NCBI GenBank assembly: GCA_023129115.1 | Contig: JAGMCR010000015.1 | Coordinates: 6,983 to 70,982 of the forward strand | DNA from: Candidatus Iainarchaeum sp. | Lineage (GTDB): Archaea; B1Sed10-29; WALL01 | Reading direction: 5' to 3' | DNA: 64,000 nt | Shown here: in pieces, positions 25,645 through 43,302 of the stretch | Layout of the letters: each line of letters starts with the position of its first letter | Position numbering within the stretch: position 1 is the stretch's first letter | Notes under the pieces: generated by a model | Databases searched by the model: none | What the model saw: only the letters and a program-made list of their open reading frames with translations | What the model was told of the DNA's origin: nothing | Program-made: the position numbers and the translations under genes

Positions 25645-25731
25645 AAGCCTTTTATCCCTCCACCGCATTACCTGTACTCGATGCCAACCTGGTCCCACTC
25701 CCGCATTTCGGCGAGTGAGTCCCTGCCCCCC
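25645..25731 (+). pseudogene. Relic of promoter + first ~16 codons of the RecB-like nuclease gene (42154)
   Basis: ATG at 25681 gives MPTWSHSRISASES, then shifted CP; the anchor reads MPTWSHSRISTYENCP. Confidence 0.85.
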
Positions 25732-25754
25732 GTAATTTTGTAACTCCCACAAAA

Positions 25755-26027
25755 TTACGTTTTGTATGCCTTGTCGTGGTGCTCAAAGTCGTAGAACTTT
25801 ACCAAGTCTTTTGTTTGGTCGTACTTGAACACTAACACGAAGCTTTTTTGTATGTGTACTCTTTTGAAGTCCTGGAGTGGCTTCCGCAGGTTTTTGTAAC
25901 GAGTTATTTTTGGGCTAGAAACAATCTCGGCTATTTTTGCCATTACTGCCGTGTATGTCTTCCCGTCTTTTTTGTGGAGCTTTTTGAGCTTTGTTTCGAG
26001 GCGCTTTTCTATGGCAAAGTCATGCAT
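25755..26027 (-). CDS. RelE/YafQ-like mRNA interferase toxin
   Basis: YKNLRKPLQDFKRVHI.KSFVLVF...FEHHDKAY. Confidence 0.85.
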   Translation of the reverse strand: MHDFAIEKRLETKLKKLHKKDGKTYTAVMAKIAEIVSSPKITRYKNLRKPLQDFKRVHIQKSFVLVFKYDQTKDLVKFYDFEHHDKAYKT

Positions 26028-26265
26028 GCTCTATCTCGTCCATTAGCTTCTTGACGGACGCGTATTCCTTGAACTTCCCGGTTTTTTCGATGCCCCTAAG
26101 CTTTTTCACGAACTCAGGCCTCAACTCTTTTTCCATTATTTCGTGGCCCATTTCGTCAATAATTAGCTGGATTGCCTTGTCCTTGGACGGCAGGCTGTAC
26201 ACGCTTTTCACCACGCCTACGACGCGGTCAAGGTCCTTGCTCAGGGTTACTGTGACTTGAGTCAT
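26020..26265 (-). CDS. Antitoxin (DUF2683-like) of the RelE toxin
   Basis: VVKSVYSL.SKDKAI...ELRPEFVKKL; overlaps the toxin start. Confidence 0.8.
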   Translation of the reverse strand: MTQVTVTLSKDLDRVVGVVKSVYSLPSKDKAIQLIIDEMGHEIMEKELRPEFVKKLRGIEKTGKFKEYASVKKLMDEIEHA

Positions 26266-26275
26266 TCACAACACC

Positions 26276-26302
26276 TACTACATTTTGTAGTAAAATGTAG
26301 TA
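26276..26302. promoter_or_regulatory. Palindromic operator TACTACATTTT-GTAGT-AAAATGTAGTA of the RelE TA operon
   Basis: Perfect 11-bp inverted repeat between the TATA box and the antitoxin start. Confidence 0.65.
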
Positions 26303-26446
26303 TAAATGCTTTTTGGTCCGCCTTTGCTTTCTTCATACCCAACGGCTTAAAAACGGCTTTGCATACGCCTTGCCGAGACCCTCCACGTGCCTTGGAATGG
26401 GTGACCACGGCGTGGTCACCCACGAGAATAAGAGAACCCTTTTATC

Positions 26447-40139: not shown

Positions 40140-40194
40140 GTTTTTGATATTTAAACCCCTCCAATAACTTTAAAAAGGGTGTTTTTGTGAACCT

Positions 40195-40290
40195 GTTCTT
40201 AGTGCTCGAGGCGTTTGCGTATCGGCCCTTGGGTTTTACGCGCACGCGCTTGCGACGGCACTCGCCCGGGGCTTTGGGTCCCGGGCTTTT
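40195..40290 (+). ncRNA. Candidate DUF3800-associated structured RNA (copy D, K-turn-like)
   Basis: TTTAAAAA at 40169; AGUGCU-CGA-GGCG / CGCU-UGC-GAC-GGCACU; 3' hairpin GCCCGGGGC/GUCCCGGGC + UUUU abutting the DUF3800 stop codon. Confidence 0.7.
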
Positions 40291-40976
40291 CACTTTATTT
40301 CTCTTAGCGCTACGCGGTTGAGCCGCTGGTTTTTGGAGCGGGCGAGAGAGTACATGCCCAGCATTATGTCGGCGGCCTGGACTTCGGGCGATGACTGTGA
40401 GCCAATCGAGCCGGACAGCTTGATCCTTCTGCCGTTTTTGCGGTAAGCGGATAGTGAAGTGCTGTGTTTTTTACGGATTGGCGCAATGTAGGCACCCACC
40501 ACAGCAAATGAGAGGTTGGACAAGAGTTCGCTTAGGAATATGTTGGATGGGCGTTGTGAGGAGGGGCTGGGGCTTGGAACCAATGCGTCAAAGTCCGTGT
40601 CCGGCACGACTGTAATACTGTCAGTGCGTTCGTTGATTAAGTAGCCAATGTCTGCAGCGATGGCGGCGGGGCATTCTTTGAGGTAGTAGTTTCTTCTTGA
40701 TTTTTCGCCTCTTGTTGCCAAGAATATGATTGCCCTGAGCCCGAGTGCCTCAAGGGCGTTGTGGTGTTCGGCCAGTATGCGCTCCCTCAGTGGCGCTTTT
40801 ATGTGTTTCCAGTGGATGCTGCCGGTGTAGCCGTTCAAGCGAGCGGTGGATTCAATGCTGGAAACAAAGCGGTTGATTGCTTCCGGGCTTCCGACTACTG
40901 CACAGATGAGTCTCCGCCCTTTGCTGTGCCTGCCCTTGTCTTTTGACGTGTCGATGCCGACAGCAATGTTTCCCAC
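40290..40976 (-). CDS. DUF3800-like RNase H-fold protein
   Basis: N-terminal VGIDTS, IHWK and C-terminal VQAADIMLG resemble the DUF3800 DES...QxAD pattern. Confidence 0.7.
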   Translation of the reverse strand: MGNIAVGIDTSKDKGRHSKGRRLICAVVGSPEAINRFVSSIESTARLNGYTGSIHWKHIKAPLRERILAEHHNALEALGLRAIIFLATRGEKSRRNYYLKECPAAIAADIGYLINERTDSITVVPDTDFDALVPSPSPSSQRPSNIFLSELLSNLSFAVVGAYIAPIRKKHSTSLSAYRKNGRRIKLSGSIGSQSSPEVQAADIMLGMYSLARSKNQRLNRVALREIK

Positions 40977-41069
40977 TGGCCTTAAACACGATTGGACGCC
41001 TTAAAAACGGCTTTGCATTTGCCTTGCCGAGGCCCCGCAGAGGCAGGAAAAGGTTTTTATCCCGCTTCG

Positions 41070-42095
41070 TCAGGTTTCGTCCGCGCCGCCACCCCACCCG
41101 TATGTGGGACCCTCATCATCAACTTCTGCAGTGTCTGCTGAGCCCTCGAGGAACCCCGCGCCCCTAGATTTTTTTGGCTTGTCTGGCATGTTTGTGCCGT
41201 CAATGTTTCCACCCGAAATGGGGTGTATCATCCTTCCGCCTTTGCGTATCTCCATGCCATCAATGTTTCCACCAGAAATCGGGTGAGGGCTGTCTTTTGG
41301 CTCACCAGGGTATACCGTTTCGCTGCGCGTCCCCCCTATGCTGCTGCCCCACTGGATTTTTTCTTTGGGCTTGCTCGGCTTGGCCGGGGCTTTGGTTGCC
41401 GGCAGCGTGGAAGCGCTACTGTATCTCGAGGGCCTGTCGTCGAGTGCATCCCGCCGTGGCTTTTCCCAGTCCTTTGTCTGGGGGTATGTGGCTGGCCGGG
41501 GGAGTGGTGGAGGAGGCATATCTACTTTTATGCCGTGGAAGGCGAGGACTGCAAGTAGTTCTCTTTGCATTTCAGGAGAAAGTTTTCGTATTCTGAGGAC
41601 GAGGTCTTTTTTGTCGAGGTTTTTGAGGTCTTCGAAGGTCGCTTGTTTGGCGGATTGTTGGCGCTGGGCTTGGGCTGCTTGTTGGCGCGCGACTAGGTAT
41701 TCGCGCAGTCGGTCGGCGTTTCTTATGTACACTGGGTTGGGGTGGACTTTGGCTGCTTCTTCGTATTTGGCGAGTGCTTCTTTGTATCGCCCGGCGTCGT
41801 GGAGATTGATTCCTTCGTTGTGGATGCGGCGGGCGAGTTGCTTGGCAGTGGGCGGACCGTACCCCAGTACTTTCCGGATTCTGCTGTCGTATTCTTGGCG
41901 TAGTGTTTTGAGTACGGGGCTGTCCGGATACATTCTTTCTACTCGTATGAGCAGCCGGATCGCGTCAGTCTCCATCCCCTTCTTGAACAAGCGCTTGAAG
42001 TCACCTTCACACTTTTCCGGTGAATAGGTGCCCCTCTTCATCTGTGATTTTCGGACCACGCCCCGAATGCCTTCCCCAATCTCCTTCAGCACCAT
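41070..42095 (-). CDS. TPR-containing protein with disordered tail (HPISGGNIDG x2)
   Basis: EGINLHDAGRYKEALAKYEEAAKVHP. Confidence 0.75.
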   Translation of the reverse strand: MVLKEIGEGIRGVVRKSQMKRGTYSPEKCEGDFKRLFKKGMETDAIRLLIRVERMYPDSPVLKTLRQEYDSRIRKVLGYGPPTAKQLARRIHNEGINLHDAGRYKEALAKYEEAAKVHPNPVYIRNADRLREYLVARQQAAQAQRQQSAKQATFEDLKNLDKKDLVLRIRKLSPEMQRELLAVLAFHGIKVDMPPPPLPRPATYPQTKDWEKPRRDALDDRPSRYSSASTLPATKAPAKPSKPKEKIQWGSSIGGTRSETVYPGEPKDSPHPISGGNIDGMEIRKGGRMIHPISGGNIDGTNMPDKPKKSRGAGFLEGSADTAEVDDEGPTYGWGGGADET

Positions 42096-42153
42096 TCAAC
42101 CACAACTAACGCACCCAAAACACTTAAAACTAACGCCCACCTTTAGCTATCCA

Positions 42154-43302
42154 ATGCCCACCTGGAGCCATAGTAGAATCTCGACGTACGAGAATTGCCC
42201 CCTGAAATTTTATTACACTTACGTCGAGAAGCCGGACGTGGAGGAGGTATTGGGTGACAATATCGCTCTTGTGCTGGGCAAGAGCTGTCACGAGGCGCTC
42301 GAGTGGCTGTACAAAGAGCTGTCCTTCGGCCGGGAGCCGTCCCTGGACGACGCCATCGACTATTATACCCAATCCTGGGGCAAGATGTGGACTCCGGACG
42401 TGATTATCCCCCGTTTTGACGAAAAAACGTGGAAAAAGCTTGGCATCCGGTACCTCGGCGACTTTTACAACCGGCACTCGCCGTTTATCGAGGACCGTAC
42501 CGTGGCCCTCGAGAGAATGGTTCGCCTTAAAATCGGCAAGTACTCGTTAATCGGGTATATTGACCGTGTTGCCGAGGCTTCTCCGGGCCACTACAAAATC
42601 ATTGATTACAAGACGACTAAGAGGCTTCAGGGGCAGGACTGGTTTGACAGTGACCGCCAGCTCGCTCTCTACGAAATTGGCTTGCGCCAGATGTTCAGGG
42701 ACGTGGAGGAGGTGGACCTCGTGTGGCACATGCTTCACTTCAACAAGGAGATTGTTTCTCGCCGGACTCCGGGGCAGCTGGAGCAGTTGAAGAGTGACAC
42801 GATTGAATTGATTAGTACTATTGAGGCTGCTGAAGAGTATCCCGCCAAAGTGTGTGGGCTTTGCCCGTGGTGCAGCTTCCAAGAAATCTGTCCCAAAAAA
42901 AAGCACGAGCGCGCCACCACGCGCATGACCGTCCGCGAGTTCCGCAGGGACGAGGGCGTTCGCGTGGCGAACAAGTTTGTGCAGACGAAGCTGAAGCTGG
43001 ACGAGTGGGGGATAAAGAACGCGGACGCGCGGAAGGACGTGCTGGCGTATTCGAAGCAGCACGACACCAGCAAAGTCATTGGGTCGAAGGCGGCTGTGGC
43101 CGTCTCGACGATGAAGAGGGTATCGTTCGACCCCAAAGTGGAGAAATTGTTGAAGAAAGAGGGGTTGTGGGAGAAGTACTCGAAGTTGGATTCTGCTGCT
43201 CTTGTGCGTGAGCTTGAGGGCCTTGACCCGAAAATCAGGGGAAAGCTTGTCAAGCTTGAGGAGACTAAAGAGTCTAAAGCTGTGCGTGTTGTGAAGAAGT
43301 GA
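42154..43302 (+). CDS. RecB/AddB-family PD-(D/E)XK nuclease with putative Fe-S Cys set
   Basis: WSHSRISTYENCP, LGKSCH, GYIDRV, IIDYKT, QLALY, CPWC..QEICP. Confidence 0.9.
   Translation: MPTWSHSRISTYENCPLKFYYTYVEKPDVEEVLGDNIALVLGKSCHEALEWLYKELSFGREPSLDDAIDYYTQSWGKMWTPDVIIPRFDEKTWKKLGIRYLGDFYNRHSPFIEDRTVALERMVRLKIGKYSLIGYIDRVAEASPGHYKIIDYKTTKRLQGQDWFDSDRQLALYEIGLRQMFRDVEEVDLVWHMLHFNKEIVSRRTPGQLEQLKSDTIELISTIEAAEEYPAKVCGLCPWCSFQEICPKKKHERATTRMTVREFRRDEGVRVANKFVQTKLKLDEWGIKNADARKDVLAYSKQHDTSKVIGSKAAVAVSTMKRVSFDPKVEKLLKKEGLWEKYSKLDSAALVRELEGLDPKIRGKLVKLEETKESKAVRVVKK

Follow-up and report, generated by a model that had tools for sequence, protein, structure and literature searches.

Foreign gene cassettes stacked at the 5′ and 3′ ends of a Cas4-like nuclease gene in a small uncultured archaeon

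One Cas4-like nuclease gene of the archaeon Candidatus Iainarchaeum sp. has foreign gene cassettes stacked against both its 5′ and its 3′ end. The window analyzed here, 64,000 nt of contig JAGMCR010000015.1, contains partial copies (relics) of both ends of this gene with cargo between them. The relics are allele-like, and no recombinase is recognisable in the arrays; a second genome and distant lineages show the arrangement too. We think it probable that the arrays arose through target-restoring insertion with imported gene ends.

Gene-end relics and the cassettes between them

The intact gene (the anchor), together with its upstream block, occupies positions 42105–43302 (+ strand; ATG at 42154, stop ending at 43302) and encodes a 382-aa Cas4-like PD-(D/E)XK nuclease. 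Residues 3–247 match PF12705 (E = 5e-29, Pfam), the Cas4 models of NCBIfam and PADLOC match below their cut-offs, and Cys15 and C237/C240/C246 are conserved.

Upstream, on the same strand, lie four copies of the gene start with an ATG and one deleted copy, as the initial annotation had described. Relic 1 (25647–25731) consists of a TATA-like block (at about −34) and ATG 25681, and ends at ~+49; relic 2 (28158–28239), with TATA-like block and ATG 28192, ends at +42 to +48 and is 91% identical to relic 1 across 80 nt. In relic 3 (29019–29065) an internal deletion fuses the TATA-like block to ~codon 7, leaving no ATG, and the copy ends in TGCCC. Relic 4 (37232–37288) is without a promoter block of its own, reads MPTWSHSRISIYESCPLNFS-stop from ATG 37232 and ends at ~+56. 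Relic 5 (40063–40138) has an upstream block like that of the anchor, ATG 40088 and an end at +49; it is 92% identical to relic 1 across 51 nt. The 5′ relics reach at most ~86 nt.

The relics had been thought to stop at one codon, a fixed point inside the gene. Local alignment to the anchors instead places their right ends at +49, +42 to +48, +51, +56 and +49, an end zone of +42 to +56 counted from the ATG. Nor does the Cys-Pro ending hold throughout: the relics at 25681, 28192 and 40088, three of the five, share an extra C (GAGTCCCTGCCC) and read E-S-L-P rather than E-S-C-P. For 13 relics from two genomes taken together, 10 end at +42 to +59 and the remaining three at +20, ~+31 and +83, with sub-clusters near +50 and +57. 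A run of C, variable in length (CCC, CCCCC, CCCCCC), lies in or beside the junctions.

A degenerate relic pattern, drawn up after the copies had been seen, gave four matches in the window and none in each of 100 shuffles. Across the 1.25-Mb genome the relics are confined to the nuclease locus, with nothing comparable elsewhere: a DNA query returned four matches at E<0.01, every one inside the array, and three more at E≥0.58 that we take as chance, while a peptide pattern returned five matches in the array and two unrelated ones on contig C13.

Cassette 1 (25732–28157) lies wholly on the − strand and has four parts (Pfam, NCBIfam, repeats): a YafQ/RelE-like toxin (25755–26027), its DUF2683 partner (26020–26265), hairpin-type small repeats (about 26490–26600) and a TPR protein (26598–28151). 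Cassette 2 (28240–29018, −) holds a 124-aa ORF (28248–28622) that matches no Pfam family at E≤0.01 and has four paralogues elsewhere in the genome. Cassette 3 (29066–37231, both strands) opens with the first copy of a 155-nt structured module (29063–29215), followed by six ORFs (Pfam, PADLOC): a 555-aa multi-wHTH protein (29257–30924, −), a wHTH (31061–31609, +) paired with a DUF6036/AbiEii-like nucleotidyltransferase (31575–32204, +), a 735-aa HTH protein (32248–34455, −) and two ORFs without family (34562–35947 and 35976–37232, +), the stop of the second overlapping the ATG of relic 4. Cassette 4 (37289–40062, −) carries at its start a composite two-hairpin element (about 37288–37400), then a 177-aa ORF (37634–38167) and a Pro/Thr-rich 463-aa ORF (38697–40088). 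Cassette 5 (40139–42104, −) comprises the second copy of the 155-nt module (40140–40295), a 228-aa ORF without family (40290–40976), which is a weak paralogue of the 177-aa ORF, and a TPR protein (41070–42095); Pfam offers no backing for the DUF3800 label previously given to the 228-aa ORF, even at E≤1.

The 3′ end of the gene is repeated as well, three times downstream, a feature that the initial annotation overlooked. 3′ cassette 1 (43303–44845, +) is a AACGCTTTTATTCT block plus a 499-aa ORF without family (43352–44851), whose stop falls within 3′ relic a (44846–44894, +); this relic is the last 15 codons and stop of the gene (LEETKESKAVRVVKK-stop) and matches the gene end at 46 of 47 nt. 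3′ cassette 2 (44895–45404, +), a 174-aa membrane-like ORF (44895–45419) again without family, is followed by 3′ relic b (about 45405–45522, +), which comprises ~33 codons of the gene tail, the stop and a AACGCTTTTATTCT block. 3′ cassette 3 (45523–47878, both strands) carries a 243-aa ORF (45542–46273, +) and three low-GC ORFs (46320–46913, 46957–47235 and 47232–47837, −). 3′ relic c (47879–47995, +) preserves 38 codons as an open frame up to the stop; it matches the gene at 27 of 38 residues and differs from it at 15 codons synonymously and at 11 non-synonymously. The original downstream neighbour of the nuclease gene, a type IIG restriction-methylase gene (47992–51405), has its ATG at 47992 overlapping the stop of this relic. 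The 3′ edges vary from 15 to about 57 codons.

The cargo is unrelated from segment to segment, also between two congeneric genomes, and apart from one weak pair no protein family is common to more than one cassette. Integrase, resolvase and transposase families had no match among 47 ORFs sent to Pfam, in agreement with the earlier statement that the window holds no integrase.

Recurrence, allelic character and cassette ends

The congeneric single-cell genome G002, from a sister species, has eight 5′ relics ahead of a nuclease orthologue 81% identical to the anchor, again with unrelated cargo. Among 67 distant homologue loci examined, five bear one relic apiece, and their cargo is Bro-N, Fic/DOC, weakly PIN-like or without assigned family. 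The same kind of end duplication brackets insertions at other genes of the window's own genome (enolase-like, ligase-like, tRNAs), often beside the two-hairpin element, so that the nuclease locus is the most crowded instance of something seen across the genome rather than the property of one att site. Synonymous and non-synonymous differences at such loci number 4/0 (enolase-like), 6/2 (ligase-like), 7/5 (a gene on contig C15) and 2/0 (a gene on contig C9). A second protein-gene array, on contig C9, has two relics with left edges equal within 1 nt; contig C12 carries a true tandem island array at tRNA-Thr, with an integrase in one of its five segments and the hairpin element adjoining two of its five relics in the geometry seen at the nuclease array.

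That the relics differ from the anchor at synonymous sites, as first proposed, is borne out by the codon comparison: W37232 shows five synonymous differences and one non-synonymous, and W25681 six and two (window relics are designated by their ATG; G numbers such as G14136 denote relics of G002). Over the first 13 codons, ten relics compared with their own anchors show 41 synonymous and 17 non-synonymous codon differences, including switches between Ser TCC and AGC and between Arg CGC and AGA; random single changes are synonymous in only 18–21% of cases. Such an excess suggests that the relics were once working gene ends of other alleles. Most relic–anchor pairs differ at 9–15 of 39 nt, and adjacent relics (29021/37232 and 37232/40088) fall into different allele classes; G7360 and G18247 have one difference each from their own anchor in 13 codons. 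The upstream blocks are mosaic: both upstream types meet in G10227, and in G18247 the only departures from its own anchor lie between −12 and −1. Together with the extra C in three relics these mosaics signal recombination among the copies, and the common frameshift suggests that relics themselves get copied.

The two-hairpin element (56–60 nt) is dispersed over about 35 sites in the window's genome, at gene boundaries. Its stem shows compensatory changes: of 54 candidate sites, 12 read CAGCTG/CAGCTG, nine CAGCTT/AAGCTG and eight CGCCTG/CAGGCG. The element turns its hp1 side to the relic at the nuclease array, at the tRNA-Thr array and at a tRNA-Asn, and it borders cassettes here, in G002 and at 59–64 kb of the window. 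Cassette ends abutting the end zone are formed by this element at six of 13 relics and by the 155-nt module at two of 13; within the window the element follows just one relic of five. W37232, G14136 and G19001, three very different alleles, each abut one and the same end of the element (CCCCTCAACTT-CAGCT...), and their divergence persists right up to the junction. The two copies of the 155-nt module, after relics 29021 and 40088, are about 99% identical. In its dispersal and its position at gene boundaries the two-hairpin element resembles REP- or MITE-like small palindromic repeats; in contrast to these, duplicated gene ends regularly border it, and the genome contains no RAYT or Y1 transposase.

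How the cassettes may have been joined

Neither array contains a tyrosine, serine or Y1 recombinase, and the five distant loci with relics contain no integrase. A search of the window's whole genome, suggested at the outset, returned a single PF00589 match, far off on contig C12 and belonging with a different core sequence, and neither Y1 nor serine recombinases; G002, at 84% completeness, gave no PF00589 (tyrosine recombinase) match. As far as architecture goes, the original analogy with a tRNA att site and its tandem islands is apt; no site-specific recombinase for the nuclease site was found in these genomes, which are 88.6% and 84% complete, so that an integrase may simply be unassembled.

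Repeated acquisition of DNA beside the gene, with the gene start restored each time, had been the initial proposal, and the intact gene, the allele-like relics and the unrelated cargo support it. We envisage incoming DNA, circular or linear, that carries its own copy of a nuclease gene end: on the 5′ side a promoter-like block and the first 40–60 nt, on the 3′ side the last 15–40 codons and the next promoter-like block. Campbell-type recombination between the imported copy and the resident gene end would leave the cargo between two copies, of which the one joined to the gene body would stay working and the other remain as a relic; further rounds, whether they hit a relic or the end in use, could build the arrays. 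The two-hairpin element and the 155-nt module would be cassette ends, acting as insulators or as recombination-prone structures. The incoming forms, the crossover and the enzyme responsible are what we infer. Our tentative choice is that host general homologous recombination alone, over 50–110 nt of similarity and with no dedicated integrase, performs the joining, and we favour it over an unseen integrase in trans.

Known target-restoring integrative elements form tandem arrays at tRNA genes or at protein-gene ends; tycheposons belong to them, and in Streptococcus thermophilus ICE/CIME accretion at fda reportedly yields such arrays too. As with such elements, direct repeats of the target end bracket the inserts, the replacement end keeps the gene whole, the site is re-used to give arrays, and most array members are without an integrase. 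Unlike them, the target here is chiefly the 5′ end of a protein gene with its promoter-like block replaced too, both ends of one gene are used, the end points form a zone and not a point, and no integrase was found at the nuclease arrays of two genomes.

Several points favour our reading: many gene ends carry the same duplications, more targets than a single specific integrase can serve; five 5′ and three 3′ relics, all gene-oriented, flank an intact gene; the relics are allele-like and recur, with unrelated cargo, in G002 and at distant loci; the copies show signs of recombination with one another; and no recombinase lies in either array, nor, beyond one weak pair, do the cassettes have a protein family in common. 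It is weakened by the clustering of 5′ end points, since random cassette founding predicts none. Three different alleles joined to one element end look like a fixed crossover, and a stem kept by compensatory changes and placed constantly hp1-side fits a recognised recombination signal. Moreover, host recombination does not account for the origin of the first cassette with a gene-end copy.

These same features would suit a recombinase in trans, of the tyrosine type or of a kind still unknown, working on integrase-less satellites or remnants whose attP would hold the gene end and whose crossover would fall in the TGCCCC region; we regard this as possible, if somewhat doubtful. Parallels would be the accretion arrays of integrative elements and, within this genome, the tRNA-Thr array with its sparse integrase and shared hairpin geometry; such an enzyme would also account for the concentration of relic ends, the two cassette-end families that adjoin the zone, divergence right up to the junction and the near-equal left edges on C9. 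Archaeal elements enter gene ends and build arrays by site re-use; in the part of the survey relevant here, 14 of 68 thaumarchaeal elements lie in 3′-distal regions of protein genes and 5′ ends go unmentioned (PMC6563490). Against such an enzyme stand the lack of any integrase in both arrays, in the five distant relic loci and in the assembled 84% of G002, and the tie of the sole integrase in the window's genome to a different core. Ends at +20, ~+31, +59 and +83, along with the 3′ edges, are too scattered for one crossover, and the many other duplicated gene ends would demand many specificities.

Insertion with long target duplication was reportedly described by Nobusato in 2000. Its in-place form, known from bacterial restriction-modification genes, would duplicate the resident gene end through staggered breaks 50–110 nt apart, with later allele replacement by recombination with other strains; it seems unlikely here. 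In the part of their survey that bears on this, Furuta, Abe and Kobayashi (2010, PMC2853133) describe defence-type inserts without mobility genes whose flanking direct repeats range from 30 nt to a few hundred, depending on the site, and are near-identical to resident sequence, with no archaeal case retained. The repeats of 47–105 nt here and elsewhere in the genome match that class, mobility genes are lacking, some pairs are near-identical (3′ relic a, G7360, G18247) and the original downstream neighbour is a type IIG restriction-methylase gene. Unlike that class, most repeats here are diverged at synonymous sites and foreign-allele-like, with up to eight stacked per gene; an allele swap would be needed after nearly every insertion, and neighbouring relics belong to different allele classes.

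Homology-facilitated illegitimate recombination is improbable: linear DNA from a related strain would be anchored in the nuclease gene and its far end joined by microhomology within the recipient's gene end, left as the relic. The relic would then stem from the recipient and the working end from the donor, which agrees with the synonymous differences; C runs of varying length at the junctions and scattered 3′ end points also fit. It leaves unaccounted for the ~86-nt ceiling on 5′ relics, the same cassette end meeting three alleles at one place and the copying of relics with a common frameshift; to our knowledge, moreover, the process is known only from naturally competent bacteria, which counts against it.

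We give similarly little credence to a new integron-like capture, in which some unrecognised enzyme, perhaps the Cas4-like nuclease acting on the ends of its own gene, would take the two-hairpin element as an attC-like recombination signal and insert cassettes. Integron arrays and the nuclease array both gather small, mostly single-gene cassettes, with toxin-antitoxin and defence-type cargo, in one place and have a structured palindromic repeat at the cassette borders. The covarying stem, the cassettes bordered by the element at several loci and the centring of arrays on the nuclease gene in two genomes, recurring in distant family members, agree with this. Unlike integrons, the array has no IntI, its cassettes bear copies of host gene ends, and the cargo runs in both directions, mainly antisense, with its own promoter-like blocks; the hairpin element is a candidate attC at most. 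It follows few of the window's relics and occurs with duplicated gene ends far from any nuclease gene, and recombination by the nuclease is purely hypothetical.

An assembly artefact, a chimeric contig piling up strain variants of one locus, is very improbable: the contig does derive from a metagenome bin, its GC content drops stepwise, and short-read assembly could be misled by repeats as long as the 155-nt module and the 51-nt relic pair, but unitig-like contigs from two samples (one of which, X1, may be the source sample of the assembly) run without a single difference across relics 28192, 29021 and 37232 and across the start of the anchor, X1 depth along the array is even at 17–21 except at repeats, the independent single-cell assembly of the sister species has its own eight relics, and single relics occur on distant metagenome contigs. 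Given the near-identity of the two module copies, the cargo behind relics 29021 and 40088 could have been exchanged by the assembler. In the second sample a 266-nt contig of depth 3 links position 44861 back to 43270, a faint hint that 3′ cassette 1 may exist as a circle or in tandem.

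Duplicated ends of a nuclease gene

The window belongs to a 1.25-Mb archaeal bin (G000; 19 contigs, 88.6% complete), and its GC content drops stepwise, from ∼59% up to 22 kb to ∼52% between 22 and 46 kb and ∼40% beyond; the array lies in the middle block. The gene on which the array is centered (the anchor, 42154-43302, forward strand) is intact and encodes a 382-aa PD-(D/E)XK nuclease (PF12705, E 5.4e-29, residues 3-247) with an additional 130-aa C-terminal region. Cas4 models match it below their cut-offs (the Cas4 equivalog TIGR00372 gives 44.2 bits where 65 would be needed), and a sequence search of the PDB with the nuclease found no relative. 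Cysteines C15, C237, C240 and C246 are invariant across four homologues, an arrangement of one N-terminal and three C-terminal cysteines that fits the Fe-S cluster motif of Cas4. At gathering scores Rfam recognizes nothing in the whole window besides the archaeal RNase P RNA at 7069-7336; at E≤1 there is no match in 40050-41200.

The initial annotation had described copies of the anchor's 5′ end upstream of the gene, and these are indeed present: relics with ATGs at 25681, 28192, 37232 and 40088, together with an internally deleted copy at ∼29019-29065, all on the forward strand. A pattern drawn from the relics matches the window four times but none of 100 shuffled versions, and nothing similar is found elsewhere in G000. 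That all copies stop at the same codon, as had been claimed, is not the case: by local alignment their right ends lie at +49, +42 to +48, +51, +56 and +49 (nt from the ATG) and define a zone about five codons wide around Cys15-Pro16. The reported Cys-Pro reading likewise fails for the relics at 25681, 28192 and 40088, where a common extra C gives ESLP. TATA-like blocks 24-34 nt before the ATGs suggest a promoter and a leaderless start.

The anchor's 3′ end, overlooked in that annotation, is present three more times downstream. The first copy (44846-44894) matches the anchor at 46 of 47 nt, the second lies at ∼45405-45522, and the third (47879-47995) retains 38 open codons, with 27 of the 38 residues the same. 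The window thus holds five relics of the 5′ end and three of the 3′ end, repeats of 47-86 nt that all share the orientation of the gene and are tallied here as separate events, which overstates their independence. At the outermost 3′ relic the stop codon overlaps the start of a type IIG restriction-methylase gene (47992-51405; MmeI/Eco57I-like) at its ATG, so the nuclease and restriction-methylase genes were probably once direct neighbors, with 4.6 kb inserted between them since. The two genes adjoin in both genomes considered here (in G002, described below, the restriction-methylase gene lies at C6:24061-26943 and is convergent) and may constitute one defence unit.

Recurrence of the arrays and divergence of the relics

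Comparison with a relative, as the initial annotation had proposed, showed that the array recurs with different cargo. G002, a single-cell assembly from the same genus, carries an orthologue that is 81% identical (C6:22923-24071), preceded by eight 5′ relics with ATGs at 7360, 10038, 10227, 11465, 14136, 18247, 19001 and 21230; no relic was found at the 3′ end of the orthologue. The cargo of G002 bears no relation to that of G000; a Fic/DOC protein and membrane proteins are part of it, whereas a recombinase is not. Six of 41 relatives, G000 among them, have the gene, and G002, alone among close relatives in having it, carries an array itself; no empty site with a single copy of the target was found in the relatives examined.

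Beyond these genomes the pattern thins out. Among metagenome homologues 34-44% identical to the nuclease (80 loci, 67 with the full gene), five of the 67 have one relic each, a count made after eight weak matches (E 0.002-0.044, seven loci) were discarded as chance. One locus (L032) has a 5′ relic of 39 nt and Bro-N cargo; the remaining four have 3′ relics spanning 18-57 codons, with Fic/DOC cargo at L079, weakly PIN-like cargo at L081, and a 3′ relic at each of L076 and L053. Overall the 3′ edges range from 15 to ∼57 codons. A class-level search of 31 genomes gave no additional arrays; pieces in two genomes lie at a contig end or in a broken gene and are uninformative. A search of assembled contigs with the nuclease returned only the G002 contig and one bacterial match of 31% identity, and the 17 loci on viral contigs are all Cas4-like, 26-28% identical and without the C-terminal region.

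In both genomes the relics resemble alleles. Over the first 13 codons, ten relics compared with their own anchors show 41 synonymous and 17 non-synonymous codon differences, a contrast that carries no probability weight because the relics are interdependent; of random single changes just 18-21% would be synonymous. Differences at synonymous sites had been reported before and are borne out, for example in the switches between TCC and AGC (Ser) and between CGC and AGA (Arg), which need several steps under selection. The synonymous excess and the multi-step switches argue that the relics are former working ends: judged by their codons, they evolved within working genes of other lineages and are not fresh copies made in place that have since decayed. 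Most relic-anchor pairs differ at 9-15 of 39 nt, the exceptions being the innermost 3′ relic and two G002 relics (ATGs 7360 and 18247).

In ten of the 13 5′ relics of both genomes the right ends lie at +42 to +59, clustered near +50 and +57, and in the rest at +20, ∼+31 and +83; the three short relics could each derive from a +57 junction via a small deletion. The window relic at 37232 and the G002 relics at 14136 and 19001 are very different alleles, yet the sequence that follows them is identical (CCCCTCAACTT-CAGCT). Directly after six of the 13 relics there is an element of 56-60 nt, consisting of a first hairpin, GGCACGTT, a second hairpin and often a TATA-like block; hereafter we refer to it as the two-hairpin element.

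Similar duplications are found at other genes of G000. A self-comparison returned 81 local direct-repeat pairs, some of them paralogous genes. Gene tails are duplicated around inserts of 0.9-3.3 kb in an enolase-like gene, a ligase-like gene and two others, with differences that are again mostly synonymous (synonymous/non-synonymous 4/0, 6/2, 7/5 and 2/0); for the first three (C5:22049-23454, C5:34517-35493 and C15:29420-30918) the inserts are 0.9-1.4 kb. The fourth is a three-copy array on C9 (62222-66324), where the terminal 57-70 nt of the gene (249 aa) recur twice downstream, with left edges within 1 nt of each other, and the cassette contains a RelE-like pair paralogous to window 25755-26027. 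Finally, a classical tandem island array at a tRNA-Thr(CGT) gene (C12:74872-92882) has the 3′ part of the gene repeated five times downstream (77540, 83599, 84485, 84832 and 92840). One of its five segments encodes a 389-aa tyrosine recombinase (78360-79529), the only one in the genome, and the two-hairpin element abuts two of its five relics in the same geometry as at the nuclease array. The arrangement of a relic against the first hairpin also occurs at a tRNA-Asn.

Cargo and formation of the arrays

Toxin-antitoxin modules had been reported between the relics and are found there: a YafQ/RelE-like toxin is paired with a DUF2683 protein, and a DUF6036/AbiEii-like nucleotidyltransferase with a wHTH protein; a DUF3800 protein at 40290-40976 is unsupported. 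PADLOC assigned no defence family to five cargo ORFs and gave HTH-type matches only for two others. The reported lack of an integrase in the window holds: C7, the contig of the window, has no PF00589 match, and Pfam places none of 47 ORFs in an integrase, resolvase or transposase family. When the search for tyrosine and serine recombinases was extended to the rest of the genome, it gave one PF00589 match, in the tRNA-Thr array on C12, and no serine recombinase; G000 also has no Y1 match, and G002 (84% complete) no PF00589 match. When 50 cargo ORFs of the two arrays were compared all against all, no common family emerged as a potential mobility gene.

In its architecture the locus corresponds to target-restoring insertion, in which the arriving gene end takes over and the older end stays behind as a relic. 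Each arrival would bring a gene end that becomes the working end and displaces the prior one into a relic. As in tandem att arrays, target repeats bracket each insert and the replacement end keeps the gene intact. One survey places 14 of 68 thaumarchaeal elements in 3′-distal regions of protein genes, with arrays arising by re-use of the site (PMC6563490). Such tandem arrays of integrative elements are, with insertion by long target duplication, the closest known systems. The nuclease arrays differ from them in that they lie mainly at the 5′ end, including a promoter-like block, both ends of one gene are used, up to eight events are stacked and no recombinase was found. A literature search (supplementary tables apart) turned up no description of arrays like these at the start of a gene, which does not show that none exists.

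For the joining of the ends our preference, a tentative one, is general recombination by the host acting on 50-110 nt of similarity. Several observations favor it: many different targets are used in one small genome, no recombinase was found in two genomes, the blocks upstream of the relics are mosaic, frameshift relics have been copied, and the 3′ edges are scattered. It is possible, if somewhat doubtful, that a recombinase that is unassembled or of unknown family acts in trans. The clustering of the 5′ ends speaks for such an enzyme, as do the constant cassette ends, to which differing alleles are joined at a single place, and the conserved hairpin, which is placed as in a true integrase array.

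A more speculative proposal, to which we give rather little credence, is that small-genome archaea of the DPANN type capture cassettes without a known recombinase, the cassettes being bounded by hairpins, attaching through a copy of a host gene's end and restoring that gene on entry. If so, defence genes could enter compact genomes at the boundaries between genes even where spacer DNA is nearly absent, with the Cas4-like nuclease gene as the preferred docking site. The two-hairpin element would then signal recombination to a new enzyme or to host enzymes that process junctions.

Duplication of a long target in place, followed by allele swaps, is unlikely. Repeats of more than 30 bp of target do flank inserts without mobility genes, as this account has it; however, they are mostly diverged and allele-like rather than near-identical. 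In a survey of insertions with long target duplications no archaeal case passed the authors' screen (PMC2853133). We consider one-ended illegitimate recombination quite improbable, and equally so a new system resembling integrons, against which stand the lack of an IntI-type integrase, a hairpin candidate after just one of the five window relics, and cargo that points both ways. Two further schemes were rejected: nested insertion of whole genes would leave one 5′ and one 3′ relic per event, whereas in G002 eight 5′ relics but no 3′ relics were found; if an element's own gene had been split in the SSV manner, the complete gene should stand leftmost in the array, with the relics to its right.

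That the array is an artefact of assembly can be dismissed almost entirely: contigs from read sample X1, possibly the source sample, bridge the relics at 28192, 29021 and 37232 and the anchor start without differences, and contigs from a second sample, X2, reach across the start of the relic at 40088 and bridge the anchor start, again without differences. These data are unitig-like Logan contigs, in which starts, ends and rare forms are invisible; a third sample, X3, with a small share, was left out. In X2, 57% of the words are present in 100%-identical pieces at a depth of 3-5. We take these to come from the same strain, sampled at low depth, and the sample gives no evidence of polymorphism in the presence or absence of cassettes. 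The search for excised circles yielded one X2 contig of depth 3 that joins 44861 back to 43270, a weak hint that the first 3′ cassette (43303-44845) exists as a circle or in tandem. Four other joints (26493/37378, 26522/37288, 43316/44847 and 45485/43280), whose short sides measure 27-37 nt, fall on repeats or where the stretch ends, and were treated as artefacts. A 463-aa ORF at 38697-40088 (reverse strand) has a signal-like start and a long Pro/Thr repeat (PTPTPT...); read depth jumps ∼20-fold over this repeat (38841-39507) in all three runs, indicating that it is common to other organisms.

Intergenic DNA is nearly absent from very small archaeal genomes, and gene gain in these archaea is poorly understood. 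At a single gene, no fewer than eight separate gains are recorded in G000 and eight in the sister species, each of which left a dated footprint, the relic of the allele then working. If no integrase is needed, gene ends would be portable attachment sites, a simple and general route by which defence genes could pass between strains. The arrays also provide ready-made markers with which to follow strain-level exchange in uncultured populations.

Small elements at cassette ends and beyond

The two-hairpin element occurs at ∼35 sites in G000, and the stem of its first hairpin is kept by compensatory changes. It follows one of the five 5′ relics in the window and bounds some cassettes. One copy (21936-22004), with a TATA-like block on each side, sits on the GC step at which core-like DNA ends and is a possible left boundary of the accessory region as a whole. 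G000 also has four TnpB-like (Cas12f1-like_TNB) genes, at C13:134192, C3:79611, C3:10561 and C3:102282. TnpB was considered as the agent and rejected: its four above-cut-off matches lie elsewhere in the genome, none beside the listed hairpin sites.

Two near-identical copies (∼99%) of a 155-nt module, at 29063-29215 and 40140-40295, directly follow the relics at 29021 and 40088, so that the assembly may have swapped the order of the cargo behind these two relics. The module, which has no further copy in the genome and no Rfam match, has a strong predicted fold (z = -3.8), TATA-like blocks and a terminal T run, and is possibly a small RNA gene.

A second small repeat (CCAGACGAGAAT...GGGATTCACGT; window 37303-37385 and 26493-26562, C1:39238-39303 and C17:10052-10144) lies within the two-hairpin element, between the first hairpin and GGCACGTT, so small elements are nested in each other. 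A series of low-GC gene blocks, ∼0.8-1.3 kb apart and with two-hairpin elements between them (60295, 61597, 62632 and 65026), occupies 59000-64000 of the window and continues to the end of the contig. Each of these elements is preceded by the same stretch of 15-37 nt (GTTGGCAGTGCATAG...), also found in G002 at C6:21644, which may be a relic of the end of another gene.
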